DNA of 16,953 nucleotides, taken from the IMG/VR virus record IMGVR_UViG_2529293063_000008, one strand, 5' to 3'. A program made the position numbers and the translations under genes. Of this stretch, positions 1,363 to 16,761 are shown piece after piece. This DNA comes from a virus (lineage: Duplodnaviria; Heunggongvirae; Uroviricota; Caudoviricetes). Numbering within the stretch: the stretch's first letter is position 1; the number at the start of each line of letters is the position of its first letter. The notes beneath the pieces are model-generated. The model was not told where the DNA came from and ran no database searches. It saw only the letters and a program-made list of their open reading frames with translations.

Positions 1363-1454
1363 AGCTATTATTTTTTTGCCTGGGTAAGCTAACCCGGCGA
1401 TGCGCATCGCGGGTGGGCTTTAGGTTCAGCCTATAGCTCTGGCATGGGTTGACC

Positions 1455-1480
1455 GCAGGACAAGCTGCAACTTGTCCTGC
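1455..1480. promoter_or_regulatory. Perfect 10-bp inverted repeat GCAGGACAAG-N6-CTTGTCCTGC upstream of the methyltransferase gene
   Basis: Arms at 1455-1464 and 1471-1480 are exact reverse complements; located 50-100 bp upstream of the MTase start codons. Confidence 0.3.
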
Positions 1481-1497
1481 GCCCACTTTTCAGGCAC

Positions 1498-1587: not shown

Positions 1588-1605
1588 GCTTTTTCGTTTT
1601 TGTGC

Positions 1606-1625
1606 TGTGCGACCGTGGTCGCACA
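1606..1625. repeat. Centromere-like palindrome, copy 1 (TGTGCGACC-GT-GGTCGCACA)
   Basis: Core TGCGACCGTGGTCGCA has 7-bp arms and a 2-bp centre; the same core recurs at 5900-5919 and 8345-8360. Same architecture as my recollection of the F sopC SopB site TGGGACC-AC-GGTCCCA. Confidence 0.5.
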
Positions 1626-1629
1626 GTTT

Positions 1630-1857
1630 TTAGAAAGTTGCCTGCTTATATTCATCGGTCAAAGAATATCGACCAGACCCGCTACGCTTTGCAATCCCAA
1701 AACAGATCATCTGTTCGATGATAAATTCAACGGCAGCCTGACTCAAAAAACAGGCTTCGCTTAACTCTTTCAGGGAAATGCGTGGGTATCCACGCATAAC
1801 ACATTCCACACTCAGGGCCGCTTCAGTCATATTTCCACGAATTTCATTAATATTCAT
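1630..1857 (-). CDS. Small putative winged-helix DNA-binding protein (75 aa)
   Basis: ATG at 1857 with SD AGAGAGG 5 nt upstream; C-terminal ...IIEQMICFGIAKRSGSGRYSLTDEY resembles a recognition helix plus wing. Followed by the 1498-1519 terminator. Confidence 0.55.
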   Translation of the reverse strand: MNINEIRGNMTEAALSVECVMRGYPRISLKELSEACFLSQAAVEFIIEQMICFGIAKRSGSGRYSLTDEYKQATF

Positions 1858-1870
1858 AACGCCTCTCTAA

Positions 1871-2092
1871 TCAATCTTGAAACTGGAAATCAACATCAGC
1901 CATAAAGCGGTTCAACTCAGCCAGTTTTGGCCCCATAGTCCCAACTAAGCGACCAGCCAGTCGGTCTGCTAGGTTGGTACTGTTGAAACCATATTCCTTT
2001 TCGAAACGTTCAACCTTCTGCCACAACTCATACAGTTCGTTAGCTATCTCCGCAACGTCGTCGCGCATTTTTTCGTTACCTTGATAATTCAT
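1871..2092 (-). CDS. Hypothetical protein (73 aa)
   Basis: Start moved to ATG 2092 (MNYQGNEK...), which has SD GGAGGA 5 nt upstream; the longest ORF begins at 2110 without an SD. Forms a tight pair with 1630-1857. Confidence 0.5.
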   Translation of the reverse strand: MNYQGNEKMRDDVAEIANELYELWQKVERFEKEYGFNSTNLADRLAGRLVGTMGPKLAELNRFMADVDFQFQD

Positions 2093-2180
2093 AATATCCT
2101 CCAAATTCATATAGTTAGTGGGTTATTGCCCCTCAATGACACGAACTGTAACTCTGCCAAACGAACACATCCAGTGTTAT

Positions 2181-2200
2181 TTTTCACTTTTTAGTGAAAT
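2181..2200. promoter_or_regulatory. Palindromic candidate operator TTTTCACT-TTTT-AGTGAAAT in the toxin-antitoxin promoter region
   Basis: Near-perfect inverted repeat 58 bp upstream of the toxin start, in the divergent intergenic region. Confidence 0.35.
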
Positions 2201-2257
2201 TTTTAATTTGCGCTGTTTTCTTGTTTTGGTGTATTTTATGGATATGGAGGCTATAAT

Positions 2258-2569
2258 ATGTTTAACGTGATAACCCACCCTGCAGCACTGGATGAACTGC
2301 TTGAACTACCAGATGATTTGCGAGGTCGCATGACCAGATTAATTGAGCGACTGGAGAAAGAAGGCAACAAACTGAAGATGCCCCATAGCCGTGTAATAGG
2401 TGGAGGGCTTTTTGAACTACGAGTAGGGGATAAAAACATCGCAAGAACGCTGTACGCCTACGCGACTGGTAACGAAATTTATCTATTGCATGCATTTGTA
2501 AAAAAGACACAGAAAACACCGGTGAAGGCTATCGAAATCGCCAGAACTCGCCTGAAGGAGATGAACTGA
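2258..2569 (+). CDS. Type II toxin, RelE/HigB-fold, gp49-like family
   Basis: 103 aa, SD GGAGG 7 nt upstream. Sequence ...GGGLFELRVGDKNIARTLYAYATGNEIYLLHAFVKKTQKTP... matches my memory of HigB/gp49-type toxins. Toxin-first order with a 1-nt overlap (TGATG) to a downstream HTH gene. Confidence 0.8.
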   Translation: MFNVITHPAALDELLELPDDLRGRMTRLIERLEKEGNKLKMPHSRVIGGGLFELRVGDKNIARTLYAYATGNEIYLLHAFVKKTQKTPVKAIEIARTRLKEMN

Positions 2570-2856
2570 TGAAAGCGAAAGGCATCCCGTTTAACGAAGT
2601 AAAAGAAAAACTTCTCAACACTCCAGAAGCCATCAAAGGATATGAAGAGGCCGATAAAGAGCTGGAGATGGTCGAAATGTTATACGAAATGAGGGAAAGA
2701 GCAGGTTTAACGAAGTCAGCTCTGGCTGAACGAATGGGATTGCGCCCGTCAGCTATCAGCCGCCTGGAAAGCAATCCTTTAGGGGCAAGCATGAAAACTT
2801 TATCAAAATATGCCCAAGCATGCGGTGCAACGATTAATATTAATGCCGTCTATTGA
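2569..2856 (+). CDS. HTH (XRE-family) antitoxin, HigA-like partner of the gp49-like toxin
   Basis: 95 aa; HTH segment LTKSALAERMGLRPSAISRLE; SD AAGGAG 9 nt upstream; start overlaps the toxin stop. Confidence 0.8.
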   Translation: MKAKGIPFNEVKEKLLNTPEAIKGYEEADKELEMVEMLYEMRERAGLTKSALAERMGLRPSAISRLESNPLGASMKTLSKYAQACGATININAVY

Positions 2857-2873
2857 TTAGACCCTTTTCGCTA

Positions 2874-2895
2874 CCCCGTCCGGAAGGGCGGGGTG
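2874..2895. terminator. Hairpin between convergent genes (possible bidirectional terminator)
   Basis: CCCCGTCC-GGAA-GGGCGGGG stem-loop between the antitoxin stop (2856) and the stop of the minus-strand 72-aa gene (2900); flanking T-runs are weak. Confidence 0.4.
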
Positions 2896-2899
2896 TGTA

Positions 2900-3118
2900 T
2901 CAATGATGTAAACTCTCAACAGCAATAACTTGTTGGCAATTCTGAGCTATCTCCCGCGACATACTAACAAGTCGTGAAATCTCGCCAAGATGCAAGCTGG
3001 CTTCTGGAGAAGCCAGAGCAACGCTAACCAGATCCAAAACGGCGTCGATGTCTTTTAGGTTTGATCCGAGTTCTTCAAGAGTTGATACAGGTGCTTCAGT
3101 CATTGAATCTAATACCAT
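2900..3118 (-). CDS. Hypothetical 72-aa protein, candidate SOS-regulated gene
   Basis: ATG at 3116-3118; promoter region 3119-3187 contains a LexA-box match and an operator-like 17-mer. Protein MVLDSMTEAPVSTLEELGSNLKDIDAVLDLV... is acidic and has no motif I recognise. Confidence 0.5.
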   Translation of the reverse strand: MVLDSMTEAPVSTLEELGSNLKDIDAVLDLVSVALASPEASLHLGEISRLVSMSREIAQNCQQVIAVESLHH

Positions 3119-3142
3119 TTAATTAAAAAAGGTTATTTGATA

Positions 3143-3158
3143 CTGTATAAAATTACAG
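3143..3158. promoter_or_regulatory. LexA (SOS) box CTGT-N8-ACAG
   Basis: TACTGTATAAAATTACAGGG (3141-3160) matches the E. coli SOS-box consensus TACTGTATATATATACAGTA in both CTGT/ACAG arms and the AT-rich centre; 25 nt upstream of the 72-aa gene start. Confidence 0.6.
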
Positions 3159-3168
3159 GGTAAAACTC

Positions 3169-3185
3169 AAATTTTATAGCCAGCT
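3169..3185. promoter_or_regulatory. Distal copy of the repressor-operator-like 17-mer AAATTTTATAGCCAGCT
   Basis: Exact 17-nt identity with 7098-7114 in the cro/repressor intergenic region. Confidence 0.5.
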
Positions 3186-3187
3186 TT

Positions 3188-3342
3188 CAATGGATTAACT
3201 GGTTAAATATCTTTGTAGTCCGATACTTATGTTCCCTTCCTGCGCCTCGCCCAACCACTTCCAAAAGCCCATCACCACCATCAGAAAAGCTCTTTTCGCT
3301 CCGTTTTCGTATCATTTCAAAAAGCAATGCCTTTTTGTCCAT
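3188..3342 (-). CDS. Small hypothetical protein (51 aa), below the ORF-track size cutoff
   Basis: ATG at 3340-3342 with SD GGAGGGG 4-5 nt upstream; translation MDKKALLFEMIRKRSEKSFSDGGDGLLEVVGRGAGREHKYRTTKIFNQLIH; stop at 3188-3190. Confidence 0.3.
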
Positions 3343-3352
3343 TTACCCCTCC

Positions 3353-3364
3353 GTGACCAGTCAC
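3353..3364. repeat. Palindrome GTGACCAGTCAC (GTGACYRGTCAC family, copy 1)
   Basis: The same 12-mer occurs at 8592-8603 and as its reverse complement within CCCCGTGACTGGTCACGGGG at 13196-13215. Confidence 0.4.
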
Positions 3365-3687
3365 ACTTTGAGCGCAAGTTTCAGCCTCGTGGTTGTAAGG
3401 TGGCATGAGCCTTCACCATCAAAAATGCATTCTGAAACAGGCATTCTTTGACCACATCGCGGACAAGTAGTAGATAGCTGTTTCTGCAACTCCTTATAGT
3501 TTTTCCTGATCAGCAGTCCGATGACTTCGTTCTCTGAATATGGAACTCGCCCTGGTCTACGCAATACACAAATTTCCCCCAACATACGTAACTCGTCAGG
3601 TTCCAGAATCCAGTCCCGTCTTGATGTGCCTTCCTTCTTCAACCGTTCCCTGCGTCTCCTTTGCCGTTCTGCAGCTGTCAGCGCCAT
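3361..3687 (-). CDS. Small basic protein with C-terminal zinc-ribbon-like CxxC motif (108 aa)
   Basis: ATG at 3687 with SD AGGAGG; N-terminus AERQRRRRERLKKEG is highly basic; C-terminus has CPRCG...C.H. Confidence 0.55.
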   Translation of the reverse strand: MALTAAERQRRRRERLKKEGTSRRDWILEPDELRMLGEICVLRRPGRVPYSENEVIGLLIRKNYKELQKQLSTTCPRCGQRMPVSECIFDGEGSCHLTTTRLKLALKV

Positions 3688-7982: not shown

Positions 7983-10900
7983 ATGACATTAAACGATTTC
8001 TATGCGGATCGCTTTGGCAGCGATCCGTTCTCGCTAATTGAAGCAGCACGGGATGAACTAACCGAGCTGGCACAGATGGCTGGTATCAACTGGCCTGCCT
8101 GTTCCGACAACATCCAACTCAACCCTCGCGGGGGTGTTGAGCGTTACTCTTCATACAATAAAACATCTCCAGAAGCTCTCGAGAAGAGCCTCAAAGGACG
8201 CGTAGAAATTTACTCCCGGCTGGAACACAGCAAAGGGATTGATTACCCGTTCATTAACTTCGTCCATAAAGGCAGCGATGCTGGCTCATGGAGCGGTTTC
8301 TCCTTCCTGTTTTCTGAATATCGCCGTGAGCAACAACGGAATAATGCGACCGTGGTCGCACAACCGGAAGAAGAACGGGCAAGAATAGAACGTCAGGCCG
8401 AAGCACGTCGTCGCCGTGAAGAACAAAAACGAATTAATGACCTGAAAAACAACCAAATTGACCATGAACGTTTGCTGGGATGGCTGGCATTTCACAGCGC
8501 GTGGGAACATGCTCCTGCAGAAGACGGCTCATGGCCATATGCGATTAAAAAAGGTATTCGTGACGTTTTTAATTCGTGTGATGTGCGTCGCGTGACCAGT
8601 CACGACAGCGCAAAATGGAGCAGGGGGCCAACCACGTATATGGCTATCCCTCTGGCTCACCTGGACGGTCGTTACGATGGTCGTATTGTGGGTTGGCAGC
8701 GAATCGACAAACAAGGTGGAAAATACCAGACCAGCGCAGTAACCAGCGGCGATTTCGTCGGTGCCTGCTTTGTTATCGGTGAGCTGAAAGGGGCGCAAAA
8801 CATCGCTGTTACAGAAGGTTTTGCTACTGGTGCATCCATCTGGCTTGCCACGAAAAAAGATAAACGCTTTGACGCTGTGGTTGTCGCTGTATCCGCTAAC
8901 AACATGGTTCATGTTGTGGAACAACTGGTAAACATGTACCCGGCGGCAAAAATCACCTGCGCACTGGATAATGACCGGAAATCTGCCACAGAAGGAAAAG
9001 GGAATACCGGCCTGCGGACTGGCTATGAAATCTTATCGAAATTCAACGATGTCCGCTGCGTCTATCCAACTTTTGAAGACGATCCGCAAATGGAGTGCAG
9101 TGACTTCAACGACCTGCACAAACTACGTGGACTTCGTGAAACAGCACGTCAACTATTTGCAACAGCAAACCGCCTGAAAACTGGTACTGATTTGCTATCT
9201 CTGACGCTCAACCGCCTGAAGACAATTAAGCGGGATAACCGTCGTACTTTTGCCAAAGAGCTGCTGAGAGCGGTGGATATTGGCATGCTAACCTGTCCGG
9301 TTCCTAACAGTCCGTCAGATTTATTTAACATGTTCTGCATCGTTCTGCGTGAAATGGGACTGGAAAATATCTATCGCGCTACGGTAAAAGACCACATTGC
9401 CCGTCGCCTGAATAAAAAGTGCCGTATTGCCCAGGCTCCGCGCTCTTTCAGCGAACGCATAACTGATCCCAATAAACGCCCTCAACATATCACATATAAG
9501 CGTTTTGAAACTTCGGTAATGACCGATGATGTCCTGAAGTACGTGCAATCACTACAGGGGATAGTCATCGTCCGTGCTGGTATGGGTTCCGGCAAATCTA
9601 CTGGATTGTTACGACCGTTAATGCATAGCTCAGAACGTGGTATCTCTGTTGCTCACCGTGTCTCCCTTATTGGCGGCCTGTGGGAAATGATGACAGAAGG
9701 AAAAGGTGTAAAAGCCGATATCCTGCACTATCAGGATCCTGGCTATCAGGAAATAGCTCCATACGCCAGTAAACTGACCATCTGCATAAACTCGATTGTT
9801 AAAAACTGCTGGCAACCGTTGATGCGCCAGCACGACTATTTTGGCTTTGACGAGGCCACACAAGGGCTACGTGCCGTTCTTTCCGGTCGGGCTATGGAAA
9901 ACCCGGTGGCTGTATTCAATACGCTAATTGACGCGCTGGCCAGAACAGAACAACACCCAATCATGGTGGATGCTGATGCGAATGATCTGCTGGTTGACCT
10001 GGCTGAACTGGCTATGAAACGCCGTGAAGAACTAGGTTTACCGGCATGGCTGCAGATCCACGTAATTGAATTACCTGTTGATGTTCGCAACCGCGAAACA
10101 GGTGAGCCAATCCGGGTTTTTTATACAGAAAAAGATCGCATCATGACCGAGGTGGTGAAAGCTGTATCGGATGGCGAAAAAATCATGTTGGCCACCGACA
10201 GCTCCACCTTTGCAGAAGATGTGACAGCCACCCTGAGAATGCATTTTCCTGGTAAGAAATTTCTGTGTGTAAACCAGAAAAACAAACCAGAGCCAGAAGT
10301 TGAAGCATTTACCAATCAACCGAAAAAGATGGTCAAAAAATACGACGGCCTGATTTATAGCCCGTCTATTTCATCCGGCGTGTCGATTGAGCAAAAACAT
10401 TTTGACCGTCATTTCGGCATGTTCTGTGGTGAAGTTGTACCCAGCGACGCAGTGCAAATGCTACGCCGCGACCGTACAGCAAAAGAATTTATTATCGGCT
10501 TTGATAAAGCTCGTGCAAAACGTGAAACTGACCCGCAAAAAATAGAACGAGCATTCGCCCAGGCATTGCTTGCTACCGCAGGTATGAACGGTGAACTGAC
10601 GGATGTCGTTTTCGATGGCGACCGTATATCAATGGGGGTGGCCAATACCGACTTTACCAGGATGAAAATTAAAGCAGCCGCTATTGAAGCGACTGCGCGT
10701 AACGACTACGCCAGCAACATGATCTGCATCATGCACAGCGACGGTTATAAGGTATCGCCGCTGGCCACCGATTATGCTGCGAATGATATCGGTAAAGAGC
10801 TGCGTAAAGAAGCGCGGGATATTGTGTGGGAACAGACACTGGATCTGCATCTCAATACAGAAACTCCACAAGAATCAGAGCGTGAAGAACTGCTAAAAAA

Positions 10901-11978
10901 ACGCGCGCTGACGCTTGAAGAACAGGCAAAACTTGTCCGCTGGGATATTGAAAACGAACTGAAACTACCGGTTGAAGAAGGCACGCTGAAATTCTATTTC
11001 GATGGTGCTCGAGACAAAGTTCGCCGCTATGAAACAATGCTTTTAGATGAGGTAACAGCTCGTCGTTACGACCGGGAAGAAGCAGCCATCAATTTTACCT
11101 ACGCATACCGTCAGGCGGGACAGTGGCAATATTTTGTAGTGACCGCGATGACTCGCGAGCAGGCTGATGATGTCTTTAAAACTAAATTCCCTGGAATAAT
11201 CGATCACAAGGTAAAAGCTACTCCTACTGTTGAAGTCGGGGCGCGCGGTTTCTATGCGCTTAAATCAGCAACTCTCCGGCAGTACTTTATCGACTGCGGT
11301 ATCAACCCTGAGACTATGACCGGCGAGGCGACTCAGGAGCGTCTCAAATTTGCTCGAGATAACCTCATGACAGCCGAACGCCGTGACCTGTTGAATAACG
11401 TTCTGCACATTGGTGGTTTTATGACGCCAAAAGGGAAGCCTAAAGTGCCGGAAGCGTTGTTTAAAAACATTTGCGACTCTCTTGGCCTTAAAACAGGTAA
11501 ACGTCGCGGCAGAGACGGCGATAAGCGTCCAACCTTGCGTTTTGTTGAGCCTGAATCAGCGGCATTTATGCTGGATATTCTTGCTCAGCGTCAGAAAGAT
11601 GGCCTAACCCTGAAAACGCGTAAAGCCGAGAAGACCGCCATCGAAATGGATCGCGATTTGGATCTCAATATATATATGGATGATAAAACGCGATCCACAA
11701 ACGAGCAGGTTCAAAACGCCCCTCATTCAGTAATTTCTGAGGCTTTGGCTGTGTTGCCAGTGGTTGTACCTGAGTCCTGGGCGATGAGTGCGCTTTCCGG
11801 TGAGGAGCTGGCCACTATGTCATCATGGTCATCAGCCAGCATAGCTATGACGTTTGCATCTCTGTACCTCACAGAGTTCATGGATCACTTATCCAGCAAT
11901 GAACTGCGGCGGTTACGTGAATACATTACCGGGAATAGCCCATGCAGCTACGAAGAGCAGGGCGCTTTCTATGGGTAA
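7983..11978 (+). CDS. repA: Multidomain replication protein: primase (TOPRIM) fused to a P-loop helicase/NTPase, N15 RepA-like
   Basis: 1331 aa; TOPRIM-like IAVTEGFATGASIWLA ... ITCALDND; Walker A VRAGMGSGKST; size matches my memory of N15 RepA. Confidence 0.85.
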   Translation: MTLNDFYADRFGSDPFSLIEAARDELTELAQMAGINWPACSDNIQLNPRGGVERYSSYNKTSPEALEKSLKGRVEIYSRLEHSKGIDYPFINFVHKGSDAGSWSGFSFLFSEYRREQQRNNATVVAQPEEERARIERQAEARRRREEQKRINDLKNNQIDHERLLGWLAFHSAWEHAPAEDGSWPYAIKKGIRDVFNSCDVRRVTSHDSAKWSRGPTTYMAIPLAHLDGRYDGRIVGWQRIDKQGGKYQTSAVTSGDFVGACFVIGELKGAQNIAVTEGFATGASIWLATKKDKRFDAVVVAVSANNMVHVVEQLVNMYPAAKITCALDNDRKSATEGKGNTGLRTGYEILSKFNDVRCVYPTFEDDPQMECSDFNDLHKLRGLRETARQLFATANRLKTGTDLLSLTLNRLKTIKRDNRRTFAKELLRAVDIGMLTCPVPNSPSDLFNMFCIVLREMGLENIYRATVKDHIARRLNKKCRIAQAPRSFSERITDPNKRPQHITYKRFETSVMTDDVLKYVQSLQGIVIVRAGMGSGKSTGLLRPLMHSSERGISVAHRVSLIGGLWEMMTEGKGVKADILHYQDPGYQEIAPYASKLTICINSIVKNCWQPLMRQHDYFGFDEATQGLRAVLSGRAMENPVAVFNTLIDALARTEQHPIMVDADANDLLVDLAELAMKRREELGLPAWLQIHVIELPVDVRNRETGEPIRVFYTEKDRIMTEVVKAVSDGEKIMLATDSSTFAEDVTATLRMHFPGKKFLCVNQKNKPEPEVEAFTNQPKKMVKKYDGLIYSPSISSGVSIEQKHFDRHFGMFCGEVVPSDAVQMLRRDRTAKEFIIGFDKARAKRETDPQKIERAFAQALLATAGMNGELTDVVFDGDRISMGVANTDFTRMKIKAAAIEATARNDYASNMICIMHSDGYKVSPLATDYAANDIGKELRKEARDIVWEQTLDLHLNTETPQESEREELLKKRALTLEEQAKLVRWDIENELKLPVEEGTLKFYFDGARDKVRRYETMLLDEVTARRYDREEAAINFTYAYRQAGQWQYFVVTAMTREQADDVFKTKFPGIIDHKVKATPTVEVGARGFYALKSATLRQYFIDCGINPETMTGEATQERLKFARDNLMTAERRDLLNNVLHIGGFMTPKGKPKVPEALFKNICDSLGLKTGKRRGRDGDKRPTLRFVEPESAAFMLDILAQRQKDGLTLKTRKAEKTAIEMDRDLDLNIYMDDKTRSTNEQVQNAPHSVISEALAVLPVVVPESWAMSALSGEELATMSSWSSASIAMTFASLYLTEFMDHLSSNELRRLREYITGNSPCSYEEQGAFYG
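8345..8360. repeat. Centromere-like palindrome, copy 3 (inside repA coding sequence)
   Basis: TGCGACCGTGGTCGCA exact; encodes ...NATVVAQ... within repA. Confidence 0.5.
8592..8603. repeat. Palindrome GTGACCAGTCAC (copy 2, inside repA)
   Basis: Flanked as CGTGACCAGTCACG; same family as 3353-3364 and 13196-13215. Confidence 0.35.
11648..11696. other. Candidate internal replication origin within the 3' part of repA
   Basis: 8-bp inverted repeat GGATCGCG / CGCGATCC (11648-11655, 11689-11696) flanks the AT-rich TCAATATATATATGGATGATAAAA and includes three GATC sites. I recall the N15 ori mapping inside the 3' part of repA. Confidence 0.3.
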
Positions 11979-12162
11979 TCAGTGGATATTATCTTTGTGT
12001 CTCTTGCTTTGTGTGTTCCAGCAATGGTTTTGGTTCATAGATCGAAAGTCTCACAAGGAAAACATGAAGGCCAGGAAGGCGATGTTTCGTGGTGAACAAC
12101 TCGCGCAGACTTATCGTATGTGGAAACGTTTCTATCGTGATTTTTCGGTGAACGGGGAGTAA
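11971..12162 (+). CDS. Possible small membrane protein overlapping the repA stop (63 aa)
   Basis: ATG 11971 in a different frame from repA (8-nt overlap, ATGGGTAA); hydrophobic WILSLCLLLCVFQQWFWFI then basic tail; weak SD. Confidence 0.25.
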   Translation: MGNQWILSLCLLLCVFQQWFWFIDRKSHKENMKARKAMFRGEQLAQTYRMWKRFYRDFSVNGE

Positions 12163-12495: not shown

Positions 12496-12891
12496 ATGGC
12501 TGTTCAATCATACAAATACGAATCCCCTTTGGATAAGGGATACATTCGTATCAAGTTAAGTCGTTCTCAGCATAAGGCTATTTTTAAGGTAAGGAAAATT
12601 CGCATATTGGATGCGTATGCGTATTACTACAACGGTGAAAATGTTGTTGTTGAACACTTTCTTGCACGATGGTTTGTAGCTCTGATTTTTGTCCCTCTCC
12701 TGTTAATTGGTACTTTTGTGGATGGTTTTCCTAGTACATGGCGGGAGATAAAGAAAGGCCTATTCCCGCGTAAGTACGGCGGATTTTCGCAAGATAGCTG
12801 GCGAGTTATACCTGGTAAACATTCTGTGGATGAGCAGCCGATTGTTGATTCCTGGTTGAAGCGTATGGCTGATGCTAAAAAAGTTGATTGA
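12496..12891 (+). CDS. Hypothetical protein with one predicted TM segment (131 aa)
   Basis: ATG 12496, 2 nt after the upstream stop (longest ORF starts GTG 12484); hydrophobic WFVALIFVPLLLIGTFV. Confidence 0.5.
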   Translation: MAVQSYKYESPLDKGYIRIKLSRSQHKAIFKVRKIRILDAYAYYYNGENVVVEHFLARWFVALIFVPLLLIGTFVDGFPSTWREIKKGLFPRKYGGFSQDSWRVIPGKHSVDEQPIVDSWLKRMADAKKVD

Positions 12892-12909
12892 GTTGTGGAA
12901 GGAGTATTT

Positions 12910-13134
12910 ATGAACTGTAACAAAAATGAAGAAACTCGCCTGGTTTGGACGGTAGTAATCGGAGATAAAAAGGGCGGTGAAGAGCCTCATTTTGATTATT
13001 CTGTGGCTTTGCAGGCTCTCATCCTTGAAGCACAGGGATACCAACAAGAGATGCAGAAGAACCCTCAACTGGAACCTCGACCAATTGGCCTATTCTGCGA
13101 GCGAGTATCAGCGGCGGAACTCCCTGATATCTGA
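12910..13134 (+). CDS. Hypothetical protein (74 aa)
   Basis: ATG 12910 with strong SD AAGGAG 6 nt upstream (longest ORF starts GTG 12895). Confidence 0.5.
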   Translation: MNCNKNEETRLVWTVVIGDKKGGEEPHFDYSVALQALILEAQGYQQEMQKNPQLEPRPIGLFCERVSAAELPDI

Positions 13135-13195
13135 TGCCCTCCAACAGCTGATCAGGTTCTGATCAGTTAGTAAAGCAAACTATAAAAACACCTGT

Positions 13196-13215
13196 CCCCG
13201 TGACTGGTCACGGGG
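13196..13215. repeat. Perfect hairpin-forming palindrome CCCCGTGA-CTGG-TCACGGGG (GTGACYRGTCAC family, copy 3)
   Basis: 8-bp GC-rich arms with a 4-nt loop; lies 20 bp upstream of a candidate promoter for the antisense-RNA/antirepressor operon. Confidence 0.45.
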
Positions 13216-13235
13216 TAAAATGTCTTTTCAAATTA

Positions 13236-13265
13236 TTGACGTGTGCGTCGTTTTGACGGTAAAGT
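13236..13265 (+). promoter_or_regulatory. Candidate sigma70 promoter of the antirepressor (immI-like) operon
   Basis: TTGACG (13236-13241), 18-nt spacer, TAAAGT (13260-13265). Confidence 0.3.
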
Positions 13266-13378
13266 TACTTCGCTGCGGTAAATCCCGTAGCCGGGACTCT
13301 CAACCCCGAAATCCGAACGACGCACAACACGCGCCAGCGTGTTTTTTTGTGTGTATGAGCCTGCGCATATCCGAATTA

Positions 13379-13460
13379 TGGTGGCTCAGGTGGGGCAGCC
13401 GAAAGGCTGGCCGGTGTCGTTTGGGCCGGTGTTGAGAACCCCGCTTGGGCTACCACCCCA
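13379..13460 (+). ncRNA. Candidate c4-type antisense RNA (P1 c4 / N15 CA RNA analogue); boundaries approximate
   Basis: About 80-nt GC-rich segment closed by GGTGG (13380-13384) / CCACC (13453-13457) with internal hairpins. Loop GGTGTTGAGAACCCC (13428-13442) is complementary to ACTCTCAACCCC (13296-13307) and ATTCTCAACTC (13466-13476), which flank it upstream of the icd-like start. Confidence 0.4.
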
Positions 13461-13514
13461 TAGAGATTCTCAACTCTGGTGGTAGCACTGTTTTACCAAA
13501 CAAGAGTGCATACC

Positions 13515-13679
13515 ATGTTCAAATTCAAATTTGCGGCAGTCGTTCGCACAGACAAAAAGTCACACATCCATCATCTTTCCACCATCGCGTCATCTGAACG
13601 GGAAGCTCGTCGCCAGTTCGCCAGCCGGTTTGTCCTGGTATTGTCTGCCCGTATTCCGGTGCGCGAGGTGGCTGCATGA
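13515..13679 (+). CDS. Icd-like small protein (first gene of the antirepressor operon)
   Basis: ATG 13515 (MFKFKFAAVVRTDKKSHIHHLSTIASSEREARRQFASRFVLVLSARIPVREVAA); the longest ORF begins at GTG 13479. Stop overlaps the next start (ATGA). Resemblance to Icd-like proteins is from memory. Confidence 0.5.
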   Translation: MFKFKFAAVVRTDKKSHIHHLSTIASSEREARRQFASRFVLVLSARIPVREVAA

Positions 13680-13909
13680 ATCAGGTAAAAATGAACACTG
13701 TTGGCCTGCTGGAATCGTTGGATGAACGTCTGGCTCAGGTCTATGCGCTTGTGTCATCCGCCCATCGTACAGTCTCCAGCTGTGAGGCGTCGATTTATCT
13801 CTCAGAAGCCGGGAAGCTCCTTCAAATTGCGTGTGAGTTGACACACAAAGCACAGGGGTATTCAGCATCTCTCTCGTCGCAATTGCAGCACAATAAGGAG
13901 GCCAAATGA
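13676..13909 (+). CDS. Hypothetical protein (77 aa), translationally coupled middle gene of the antirepressor operon
   Basis: SD GAGGTGG 6 nt upstream; ATGA overlaps at both ends. Confidence 0.55.
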   Translation: MNQVKMNTVGLLESLDERLAQVYALVSSAHRTVSSCEASIYLSEAGKLLQIACELTHKAQGYSASLSSQLQHNKEAK

Positions 13910-14859: not shown

Positions 14860-16761
14860 TTAACCGAAATATGTCAGCCATGCTAACTGCATTGCTGACA
14901 TGGGGCTGTTTGCACTGCCGGACCACGCATAATTCTGGCCATTATAATGAAACTCAACAACGTATGAGCCATCACCAATATTTCTCACCGGCTTAAATAC
15001 CGGCTTAGATACAGGCGAAGAAGGTGCAGGCGGTTGCTGTTCTTCTACGCTCTCTTCCTCTTCCTCTTCCTCTTCCTCTATCTCAATTTCGTCGTCATCC
15101 AGATCGTCATCCTCTGACAATTCATCCGCCAGTTCAGGTATTGCTTCCAGTTCTTCTTCGTCAGGCATAACGATTTCTGGAGTATCTATTTTCAGTTGCC
15201 ATTGTCCGTTTTCGCCAACAAATTGCCCCAGAGCATCAGCAGCAAATTCCAGGTATCGACTAATCATTGTTGGGCTAAATTTGAACGCTCTTAGAGTGCT
15301 GTTCGTGATTTTTATAGAGGGGTCCTGCTCTACCAGCTGCTTAACTGTGTTATGCAGACGAACCCCGGCATCTCCTCTGGCGAATCCAGGCATTTCGTCA
15401 TCAAGCTGCTGCAATGCTTCCAGCCTGGTATTTTCGTTTCCAGTATTTGGCCTCCATGTCTTTGAGAAGTTGGCCAGCTTGAATTGCTTATAGTGTAATT
15501 GAGTGTTTTCATCGTCATGGCCTAAAATTTCCATAAAGAAAACATCTTCATCTACGTTTTTCCAACGAGGATCTACGCGGAAAAACATTTCATACGCAAT
15601 ACGGGCATAAATAGCACGACTATCTTTATAAACACGGCGGTCATCTTTGAAAAATGATTTAACCCACGGGTTAAAAGCCTTTGCTAATATGGCATTAATA
15701 CGTCCGTTTTCAGAGCGTGTGTCGTTATCTCCATAACCTTTAACGACATCATCAAAATCAGATGCTGCTGGGCATGAGCGAAGTACATTTATTAAATAAA
15801 CAAATGTTTTTGCTTCGCATAATGTATATATTTTTCTGGTTATATCATCAGAAGTTCTTTTTTTAGCTTGGCCTAAAAAATCAACGGTATACTTACCAGA
15901 AACAGTAAATGTACCTTGATACATAATCTCAATCATTCGTCTTCCTGACAATGCAGCAAGTGCAAATGCCAAAGGAGCCATACCTGAACGAGTGTTTAGA
16001 TTATTTAATGTAGCAGGGCTATTTATAATATCGTAAATAGCTTGCATATATTTAGGGTAATCAATGACCACCACGTTACGTTTCTTATTGTGCAGAACGT
16101 CCGCCCATCGTTGCTGGATAGATGCACGTTCGGCAGGGCTTAGTTGAAGATGATAGAGAATCTCATGGTTAACTTTTAGCTGATTCAACTCCTCAAGTAA
16201 GGCAGATCCTTGCTGTAGTAATTTATATAAATAATCGCGCTTATCTTTCCAGTTATCGCTAGTTAAATCAGAAATGGCGAATTGCCACTCTTTATATTTA
16301 TTTGATAATTTCAATAACTTATTATGACTTTTGTTATCGCCAATTCTGATATTAGATAAATCTTCTGATAGAGGGAGAATTAATTTTAATTTTGCCTGTA
16401 AAGCTGACATTCTCTGGCGAATATCGGCAGCAGGTAGAGAAAGCCATGACAATAGCTCCTCATTATATAAAGGATACTTTTCAGATAGGCGATGTATATT
16501 TTTTTCAAAGCTATGATGAAGTTTATCATCAAACCGTTTTCTGGCCCTGCTCATATAGGCATTGAATGTGTTGGCTGTAATTCTTTTTTCTAATCCTTTC
16601 CCCCTAAACTTTCGCTTGTCATTAAATAATGCATTTTTAAATTTTAATGCAACAGCCTTTATTTTTTTTGTTTTCTCCCCTTGAGGACGGTCAGAGTTAT
16701 CTATTGACTCAACATCGCTAACAAGTGAGTTTATTAATTCACCGATTTTTACTTTGCTCAT
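14860..16761 (-). CDS. telN: Protelomerase (telomere resolvase), TelN-like
   Basis: 633 aa; N-terminus MSKVKIGELIN..., length and an acidic Glu/Asp-rich stretch before the C-terminus match my memory of N15 TelN. SD AGGAGAGG. The gene abuts the terminal half-palindrome. Confidence 0.8.
   Translation of the reverse strand: MSKVKIGELINSLVSDVESIDNSDRPQGEKTKKIKAVALKFKNALFNDKRKFRGKGLEKRITANTFNAYMSRARKRFDDKLHHSFEKNIHRLSEKYPLYNEELLSWLSLPAADIRQRMSALQAKLKLILPLSEDLSNIRIGDNKSHNKLLKLSNKYKEWQFAISDLTSDNWKDKRDYLYKLLQQGSALLEELNQLKVNHEILYHLQLSPAERASIQQRWADVLHNKKRNVVVIDYPKYMQAIYDIINSPATLNNLNTRSGMAPLAFALAALSGRRMIEIMYQGTFTVSGKYTVDFLGQAKKRTSDDITRKIYTLCEAKTFVYLINVLRSCPAASDFDDVVKGYGDNDTRSENGRINAILAKAFNPWVKSFFKDDRRVYKDSRAIYARIAYEMFFRVDPRWKNVDEDVFFMEILGHDDENTQLHYKQFKLANFSKTWRPNTGNENTRLEALQQLDDEMPGFARGDAGVRLHNTVKQLVEQDPSIKITNSTLRAFKFSPTMISRYLEFAADALGQFVGENGQWQLKIDTPEIVMPDEEELEAIPELADELSEDDDLDDDEIEIEEEEEEEEESVEEQQPPAPSSPVSKPVFKPVRNIGDGSYVVEFHYNGQNYAWSGSANSPMSAMQLAWLTYFG

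Follow-up and report, generated by a model that had tools for sequence, protein, structure and literature searches.

Characterized relatives of the gene pair

The gp49-gp48 locus of phage N15 was published in 2007 as a toxin-antitoxin (TA) stabilising system (Dziewit et al. 2007, J Bacteriol 189:1983), going by the passages in which later papers cite it. Makarova et al. 2009 (PMC2701414) refer there to the N15 stabilising module, Wozniak and Waldor 2009 (PMC2654960) to the N15 module, Armalyte et al. (PMC5906591) to the N15 TA module and a 2026 phage-plasmid paper (PMC12977533) to addiction modules, and the title as cited (PMC2701414; PMC12977533) credits the module with stabilising heterologous replicons. 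The relevant passage of Sala et al. 2012 calls the gp49-gp48 locus of the E. coli N15 prophage 'chaperone-less'. N15 gp49 is given as an example member of the Gp49-like family (PMC2701414), in agreement with the statement, in an earlier note made on the DNA studied here, that the family takes its name from an N15 gene.

Toxins of the Gp49 family (PF05973) are listed as ribosome-dependent mRNases encoded in toxin/antitoxin gene order (PMC11980606). The Tad-Ata group, which pairs a COG4679 toxin with a COG5606/COG1396 antitoxin, is now usually filed under Gp49-type HigBA. Tad-Ata of Paracoccus aminophilus pAMI2 and s045-s044 of SXT are like the gene pair described below in having a DUF891/Gp49 toxin, toxin-first order and an XRE HTH antitoxin, and they show the plasmid-stabilising phenotype proposed for it (PMC2701414; PMC3832669), but they are only distant sequence relatives and lie on other kinds of replicon. 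Validated Tad toxins share about 20% identity with other Gp49 toxins (PMC5906591).

The Gp49-type HigBA systems of Streptococcus pneumoniae (6af3), Mycobacterium tuberculosis (HigB1 of the TAC module, 7nbu and 7awk) and A. baumannii (HigBA2) belong to the same Pfam family and likewise have a downstream HTH antitoxin. Their toxins are mRNases (ribosome-dependent where tested) whose RelE fold includes a long C-terminal helix, and the operons are autorepressed via promoter palindromes; for A. baumannii HigBA2, plasmid stabilisation has been shown as well (PMC5906591). Similarity to our pair is weak (phmmer E 5.5e-5 to 0.04). The M. tuberculosis TAC module includes a SecB-like chaperone whereas our module has none, and S. 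pneumoniae HigBA has four palindromes (PMC7984235) where our module has one. The HigBA systems of Rts1 / Proteus vulgaris and of E. coli K-12 have toxins of other Pfam families (PF05015 / PF09907) within the RelE/ParE superfamily. Neither of these HigB and HigB-like profiles was among the Pfam matches of our pair at E values up to 1, so that 'HigB-like' is right for the working mode but not for family membership. P1 phd-doc is likewise an addiction module on an extrachromosomal prophage (PMC12977533; PMC4553209), but its proteins are unrelated (the toxin is a Fic/Doc kinase) and its gene order is antitoxin-first.

An N15-type gene pair

In the window, by which we mean the whole 16,953-bp stretch of DNA analysed here, the toxin gene lies at 2258..2569 and the antitoxin gene at 2569..2856, both on the + strand and both starting with ATG. 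They encode proteins of 103 and 95 aa, respectively, the first a Gp49-type HigB/Tad protein of the RelE/ParE superfamily and orthologue of N15 gp49, the second an XRE/Cro-type helix-turn-helix (HTH) protein and orthologue of N15 gp48 (Ata/HigA). The toxin-first order and 1-nt overlap described in the earlier note were confirmed, the toxin stop codon TGA (2567-2569) and the antitoxin ATG (2569-2571) sharing a single base (TGATG). Both of the strong Shine-Dalgarno sequences that it had mentioned were found: GGAGG at 2246..2250 (+ strand), 7 nt ahead of the toxin ATG and invariant in an alignment of six N15-like phages, and AAGGAG at 2555..2560 (+ strand), within the 3' end of the toxin gene, 8 nt ahead of the antitoxin ATG and kept in N15 and phiKO2. 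This arrangement, a toxin gene followed by an overlapping antitoxin gene on the same strand, is that of Tad-Ata / Gp49-type HigBA pairs.

A G+C-rich hairpin follows at 2869..2897 on the + strand, 13 nt past the antitoxin stop codon and facing the convergent gene gp47. Its predicted folding energy was -21.4 kcal/mol (z -3.0) on the + strand versus -13.4 on the - strand, and it is probably the 3' end or terminator of the operon; the terminator scan missed it because it has no T-run. YDC107_1 and phiKO2 have a similar hairpin after the antitoxin gene, whereas N15 lacks it and has a roughly 380-bp spacer there.

Pairwise BLASTP showed 95 of 103 residues of the toxin to be identical to N15 gp49 (92%) and 82 of 95 residues of the antitoxin to N15 gp48 (86%, with 98% positives). 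When the toxin was searched by tblastn against a phage collection, identity was 100% in two Escherichia Ravinvirus phages, 92% for N15 gene 49, 91% for phiKO2 Gp49 and 88% in several Klebsiella N15-like phages. N15 and phiKO2 have their pair in the same slot, flanked by gp50 and gp47 and oriented opposite to the operon around it; given this protein identity and shared genomic position, the two genes are orthologues of N15 gp49-gp48. Megablast found no N15 match across the gp49-gp48 stretch, indicating that the toxin protein is better conserved than the DNA. The N15 proteins (NP_046945.1 and NP_046944.1) are likewise 103 and 95 aa long, and the N15 genes have the same toxin-first order, 1-nt overlap, gp50-gp47 slot and strand opposite to their neighbours. 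N15 also carries an identical palindrome at equal distance (57-77 nt) from the toxin ATG, and the two modules share their type of replicon, a linear plasmid-prophage. The differences are 8 substitutions in the toxin, 13 in the antitoxin, the promoter spacer and the region after the antitoxin gene described above, and nothing in them suggests a functional difference between the two modules.

Judged by sequence, then, the cassette is a close orthologue of the characterized N15 module and more than merely 'HigBA-like'; it is known and annotated rather than novel. Because of this close orthology with a published module, the reading in the earlier note is right and the feature was already known. 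The RefSeq entry for the toxin, WP_001495871.1, is already labelled 'type II toxin-antitoxin system RelE/ParE family toxin'.

Profile searches placed both proteins in the families that had been proposed for them. The toxin matched Pfam Gp49 (PF05973) with an E value of 2.5e-29 (101.6 bits, cut-off 23.9), the match covering the whole profile (positions 1-90 of 90; toxin residues 12-100), and its sequence matches in the PDB were S. pneumoniae HigB (6af3_A, E 5.5e-5) and M. tuberculosis HigB1 (7nbu, which is ribosome-bound, and 7awk). The antitoxin matched Pfam HTH_3 (E 1.6e-12, residues 38-88), with the HTH at residues about 36-88, as expected of a Tad-Ata / Gp49-type HigBA antitoxin of the XRE/Cro type; it also matched the transcriptional regulator family phrog_1373 (E 3.4e-36) and, in the PDB, HipB, M. 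tuberculosis HigA2 (7ewc) and S. pneumoniae HigA (6af3_B). Toxin and antitoxin thus match the two chains of one solved S. pneumoniae HigB-HigA complex, 6af3, which bears out the proposed HigBA type. The Pfam and PDB sequence matches already settle the family of the toxin. In a single-sequence AlphaFold2 model of the toxin the order of elements (helix-helix-four strands-helix) was consistent with the family, but the model, with a pLDDT of 45.3, was too poor for a fold search and adds little.

We compared the toxin with the catalytic-pocket residues of M. tuberculosis HigB1 listed by Mansour et al. 2022 (PMC9098466). In the alignment from the PDB match, HigB1 K58, E66, R68, N73, F93, K95, Q98 and K99 have as counterparts R45, E53, R55, N60, F80, K82, Q85 and K86, and the counterpart of R77 is R63, which lies in a variable loop and is shifted by one residue in the alignment. 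The toxin therefore has the basic and aromatic active-site residues of active PF05973 members. Some Gp49-family HigB proteins are non-toxic (PMC9098466; PMC11205783), and if the toxin here lacked catalytic activity, as M. tuberculosis HigB2 and HigB3 do, the pair would act only as transcription regulator and co-repressor and kill no cell. NCBIfam, which has no equivalog-level model for the toxin (there was no equivalog-level match; the best for the toxin, TIGR02683, scored 15 bits against a cut-off of 62.85), is in keeping with such a reading. It is nevertheless highly improbable: HigB1 residues K58, N73, F93 and K99, which are absent from the two non-toxic paralogues, all have counterparts here (R45, N60, F80 and K86), and the toxin has kept 92% amino-acid identity to N15 where megablast gave no N15 DNA match. 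N15 gp49, the protein to which it is 92% identical, is moreover reported to be toxic and indeed bactericidal in E. coli. As the residues lost in HigB2 and HigB3 all have counterparts, the 103-aa toxin is predicted to be active.

The palindrome upstream of the toxin gene

The earlier note had pointed to a palindromic candidate operator at 2181-2200. The palindrome is present, the 8-nt arms given there being complementary at 7 of 8 positions around a perfect 7-bp inverted repeat at 2182..2199 (TTTCACT at 2182-2188, AGTGAAA at 2193-2199, with the 4-nt spacer TTTT), a candidate site for operator binding by the HTH antitoxin. The window has no second copy, even with 2 mismatches allowed. In 5000 dinucleotide-preserving shuffles of the 147-bp intergenic region (65% A+T), an equally good inverted repeat (perfect, with arms of 7 nt or longer and no more than 10 nt between them) arose in 8.7% (P 0.087), so that the palindrome taken alone is within chance. 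The shuffle statistic was dropped as stand-alone evidence and conservation was used instead. In an alignment of six phages (the one in this window, YDC107_1, N15, phiKO2, KpLi5 and Kpn74), 16 of the 18 palindrome columns were invariant, compared with 59% of the whole intergenic region and 37% of the stretch from the palindrome to the Shine-Dalgarno sequence, and this conservation of the sequence lifts the palindrome above chance.

Homologous HigA proteins and HigBA complexes bind promoter palindromes and repress their own operons (PMC7984235; PMC5906591). The core of our palindrome, TCAC-N6-GTGA, equals that of ATATCAC-N6-GTGATAT, the EMSA-mapped site of M. tuberculosis HigA2, a distantly related antitoxin (PMC11205783). 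A search for further operator copies (TCAC-N6-GTGA with at most 1 mismatch) gave 5 matches versus 6.0 expected, with no other near the operon.

Further evidence came from the Enterobacter phage MStein-2023a, in which homology to the window stops at ...ACATCCAGTCT, about 4 nt left of the palindrome, and restarts at the antitoxin start codon. The replacement segment is a hicA-hicB pair (PF07927, E 6.8e-10; PF15970, E 2e-12). The palindrome, the promoter region and the gp49 toxin gene are gone, and the gp48 antitoxin gene, gp50 and the conserved blocks upstream of gp50 remain. Since the palindrome was lost with the toxin gene while gp50 stayed, it travels with the gp49 cassette and not with gp50.

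That the palindrome lies 'in the promoter', as had also been claimed, held only in part. A sigma-70 consensus scan found no strong promoter at the operon, the sole promoter-like match in 1800-3200 covering the start of the leftward gene gp50. A looser scan gave three weak candidates (7-8 of 12 consensus matches), all of which overlap the palindrome or lie at most 8 bp from it. TTGCGC-18-TATTTT (2208..2237, + strand; 7/12), 8 bp downstream of the palindrome and within the segment swapped out in MStein-2023a, keeps the TTG of its -35 and the TAT(A/T)TT of its -10 in six of six phages and reads TTGTGT-17-TATATT in N15. CTGCCA-18-TGtTATTTT (2154..2183, + strand; 8/12 plus an extended -10), with a -10 that shares bases with the palindrome's left arm, is weaker on conservation because the TG of its extended -10 is not kept in N15 or phiKO2. 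The third, TTTTCA-17-TAATTT (2181..2209), is a weak match. Relative to the best-conserved candidate, the palindrome sits upstream of the -35, an unusual place for a repressor.

Because all three candidates lie at or near the palindrome, a bound dimer would plausibly interfere with RNA polymerase whichever of them is real. The palindrome is near-invariant in six phages, was lost with the toxin gene in the hicAB swap and has a core that matches a known HigA site; for these reasons an operator role for 2182-2199 is plausible, and we favour it with some reserve. Inside the toxin gene, an internal promoter for the antitoxin was sought and nothing above 7/12 was found, the best match being TTGAAC-16-AAACAT at 2412-2439. 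The 2007 report is said to describe cassettes with two promoters, the second upstream of the antitoxin gene.

A different function for the same sequence, as a weak intrinsic terminator or RNA hairpin, or as part of the leftward gp50-gp51 promoter, with any autoregulation acting through another site, has some points in its favour. The N15 record annotates the same 21-nt stem-loop as a 'putative rho-indep. transcription terminator', and on the + strand the palindrome would form a weak RNA hairpin (-6.2 kcal/mol, z -4.0) followed by a U-run UUUUUAAUUU. It is also overlapped by TTAAAA-16-AAAAAT, which weakly resembles a leftward promoter, and the palindrome's P value of about 0.09 is not significant by itself. 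However, the stem contains just 2 G-C pairs and was not picked up by the terminator scan, which called no terminator in 1800-3200, and there is no upstream + strand gene in need of termination. The loss of the palindrome in MStein-2023a, where gp50 and its upstream blocks were kept, also counts against such a function, and both the sequence of the arms and their spacing are conserved around a core that matches the HigA site. We therefore consider such a function unlikely, and the operator remains our preferred reading of the palindrome.

The prophage-plasmid and the proposed role of the module

The window is 100% identical to part of NZ_LR883007.1, plasmid 2 of an ETEC E. coli isolate, a 46,243-bp replicon of N15 type. 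It contains a CyRepA1-type replication protein gene (repA, 7999-11994), the cB/cro/Q immunity region, and a protelomerase ORF on the - strand (14860-16761) that encodes an intact 633-aa protein with all four TelK domains and 77% identity over its full length to N15 TelN. A perfect 10-bp inverted repeat at 1605-1626 matches a 'putative plasmid partitioning site' annotated in phiKO2. RefSeq flags the protelomerase as frameshifted, and a defective element was considered on that account; it was ruled out by the intact 633-aa ORF and its four TelK domains. The 46-kb ETEC plasmid is thus a prophage of N15 type that has a complete set of maintenance functions (protelomerase, RepA, partition site and TA module), and the term plasmid-prophage used in the earlier note was well chosen. 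Across 5426 complete E. coli genomes the TA region was present in 17, plasmid-borne in all 17 and chromosomal in none, and 29 further PLSDB plasmids carry it. The module is thus found on extrachromosomal replicons, as for an addiction module. These observations are useful mainly as annotation of the ETEC plasmid and carry little weight as a discovery.

Taken together, the sequence features and family of the two proteins, their orthology and synteny with N15, the plasmid-only location and the conservation of palindrome and active site make it very likely that the module is a type II TA operon, orthologous to N15 gp49-gp48, in which an mRNase toxin and an HTH antitoxin form an autorepressed unit that stabilises the prophage-plasmid. 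For toxicity, neutralisation, stabilisation of plasmids and ribosome-dependent cleavage of mRNA we rely on published work on the N15 orthologue and on homologues; the N15 locus itself reportedly stabilised heterologous replicons. Judging from its homologues HigB1 of M. tuberculosis and HigB of S. pneumoniae, the toxin, predicted to have a RelE fold, would enter the ribosomal A site and cleave mRNA, so that translation stops. Translation of the antitoxin gene would be coupled to that of the toxin gene via the TGATG overlap, and the XRE-type HTH antitoxin would bind and neutralise the toxin. Bound as a dimer to TTTCACT-N4-AGTGAAA, at the putative promoter, the antitoxin most likely keeps the operon repressed, either by itself or together with the toxin. 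When the roughly 46-kb prophage-plasmid is lost from a daughter cell, the antitoxin, presumed to be labile, would decay, and the freed toxin would arrest or kill the plasmid-free cell, stabilising the prophage in the population.

A real TA pair might instead serve mainly in abortive infection or in the exclusion of competing phages and plasmids, with an incoming phage as the trigger that frees the mRNase and post-segregational killing as a secondary effect. Abortive infection against lambda has been reported for a toxin-antitoxin-chaperone module, in which it is set off by a Gp49-family HigB (PMC11980606), and deletion of the SXT homologue s044-s045 caused no rise in the loss of its native element (PMC2654960). 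As that pair is dispensable for maintenance of the element on which it occurs, stabilisation of a test plasmid is no proof of maintenance of the native replicon. In PADLOC, our toxin gave a weak match to the C-terminal region of NsnC (E 2.6e-7), and our antitoxin matched defence-associated HTH models, but these matches are partial or generic and too little to call a defence system. Likewise, the presence of a different TA pair (hicAB) in the same slot of a sister phage is a kind of turnover that is also typical of defence islands, but no chaperone or sensor gene adjoins our module, the strict tie to extrachromosomal prophages fits addiction, and the N15 orthologue was published, according to its cited title, as a replicon-stabilising system. 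A defence role is thus possible but nothing here supports it, and as the main job of the module we regard it as quite improbable compared with stabilisation of the prophage-plasmid. Defence and addiction roles of such a module are not mutually exclusive.

The hicAB swap in the sister phage also hints at a role in competition among phages and plasmids. While decidedly speculative, and in our estimation probably wrong, it may be that the gp47-gp50 slot of N15-like phage-plasmids is a hot spot for the exchange of TA cassettes, with the palindrome as a shared regulatory handle, and that an orphan gp48, if expressed, confers 'anti-addiction' immunity. If this were true, a phage-plasmid with an orphan gp48 could take the place of a relative that bears gp49 while the host survives.

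The toxin-antitoxin slot in MStein-2023a and Kpn74

In Enterobacter phage MStein-2023a (CP115603.1; here L008), positions 2380-3445 are the counterpart of window 2177-2856, and a hicA and hicB pair (2482-2664 and 2707-3138, respectively) stands in the equivalent slot in place of the palindrome, the candidate promoter and the gp49 toxin gene. The gp48 antitoxin homologue is retained there at 72% amino acid identity, but near L008 3326 its reading frame is broken by a +1 G, possibly a sequencing error. One toxin-antitoxin cassette has thus been swapped for another, with an orphan antitoxin left behind. Klebsiella phage Kpn74 (OQ790078.1, L005) has frameshifts in homopolymer runs in both the gp49 and gp48 homologues (1501-2090), so that its record shows a truncated toxin and leaves the antitoxin unannotated. 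Either the module has decayed in this phage or the frameshifts are sequencing errors.

Sequences flanking the module

Within the gp50-gp49 intergenic region, two more blocks, GACACGAACTGTAACTCTG (window 2136-2157) and ACATCCAG (window 2166-2176), were as conserved as the palindrome among the six phages aligned. Both blocks are retained in the hicAB variant, where the palindrome is lost. For the leftward gp50-gp51 genes, they may serve as the 5' leader or as a regulatory site. On the other side of the module, where the antitoxin and gp47 genes converge, window 2869-2897 holds a strong G+C-rich hairpin that has no T-run; its RNA is far more stable when read from the + strand (-21.4 kcal/mol) than from the - strand (-13.4 kcal/mol). 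N15 differs in lacking this hairpin and has a spacer of approximately 380 bp at that place.

Other repeats and plasmid-prophage genes

Downstream of the gp51 homologue, window 1605-1626 holds a perfect 10-bp inverted repeat, CTGTGCGACC-GT-GGTCGCACAG, which matches the 'putative plasmid partitioning site' in the annotation of phiKO2 (L003 1846-1863) and is likely a SopB/ParB centromere site. A second inverted repeat, of 14 bp with zero spacer and 93% complementarity (CGCAGGACAAGCTG / CAACTTGTCCTGCG, window 1454-1481), lies upstream of the methylase gene, near the position of the late promoter and terminator annotated in N15 and phiKO2.

In the RefSeq record NZ_LR883007.1 the protelomerase is flagged as a pseudogene with a frameshift, and its 3' part is overlaid by small genes annotated on the + strand. 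The window contains an intact protelomerase ORF of 633 amino acids (14860-16761, - strand) that includes all four TelK domains and shares 99% identity with that of YDC107_1 and 77% with N15 TelN. The pseudogene call appears to be an artefact of annotation. An IS5-like ISKpn26 transposase gene (window 12897-13877) is inserted beside a frameshifted small ORF (12719-12915), in a region matching the N15 secondary-immunity (cA) area, and this insertion may affect immunity or antirepressor control.
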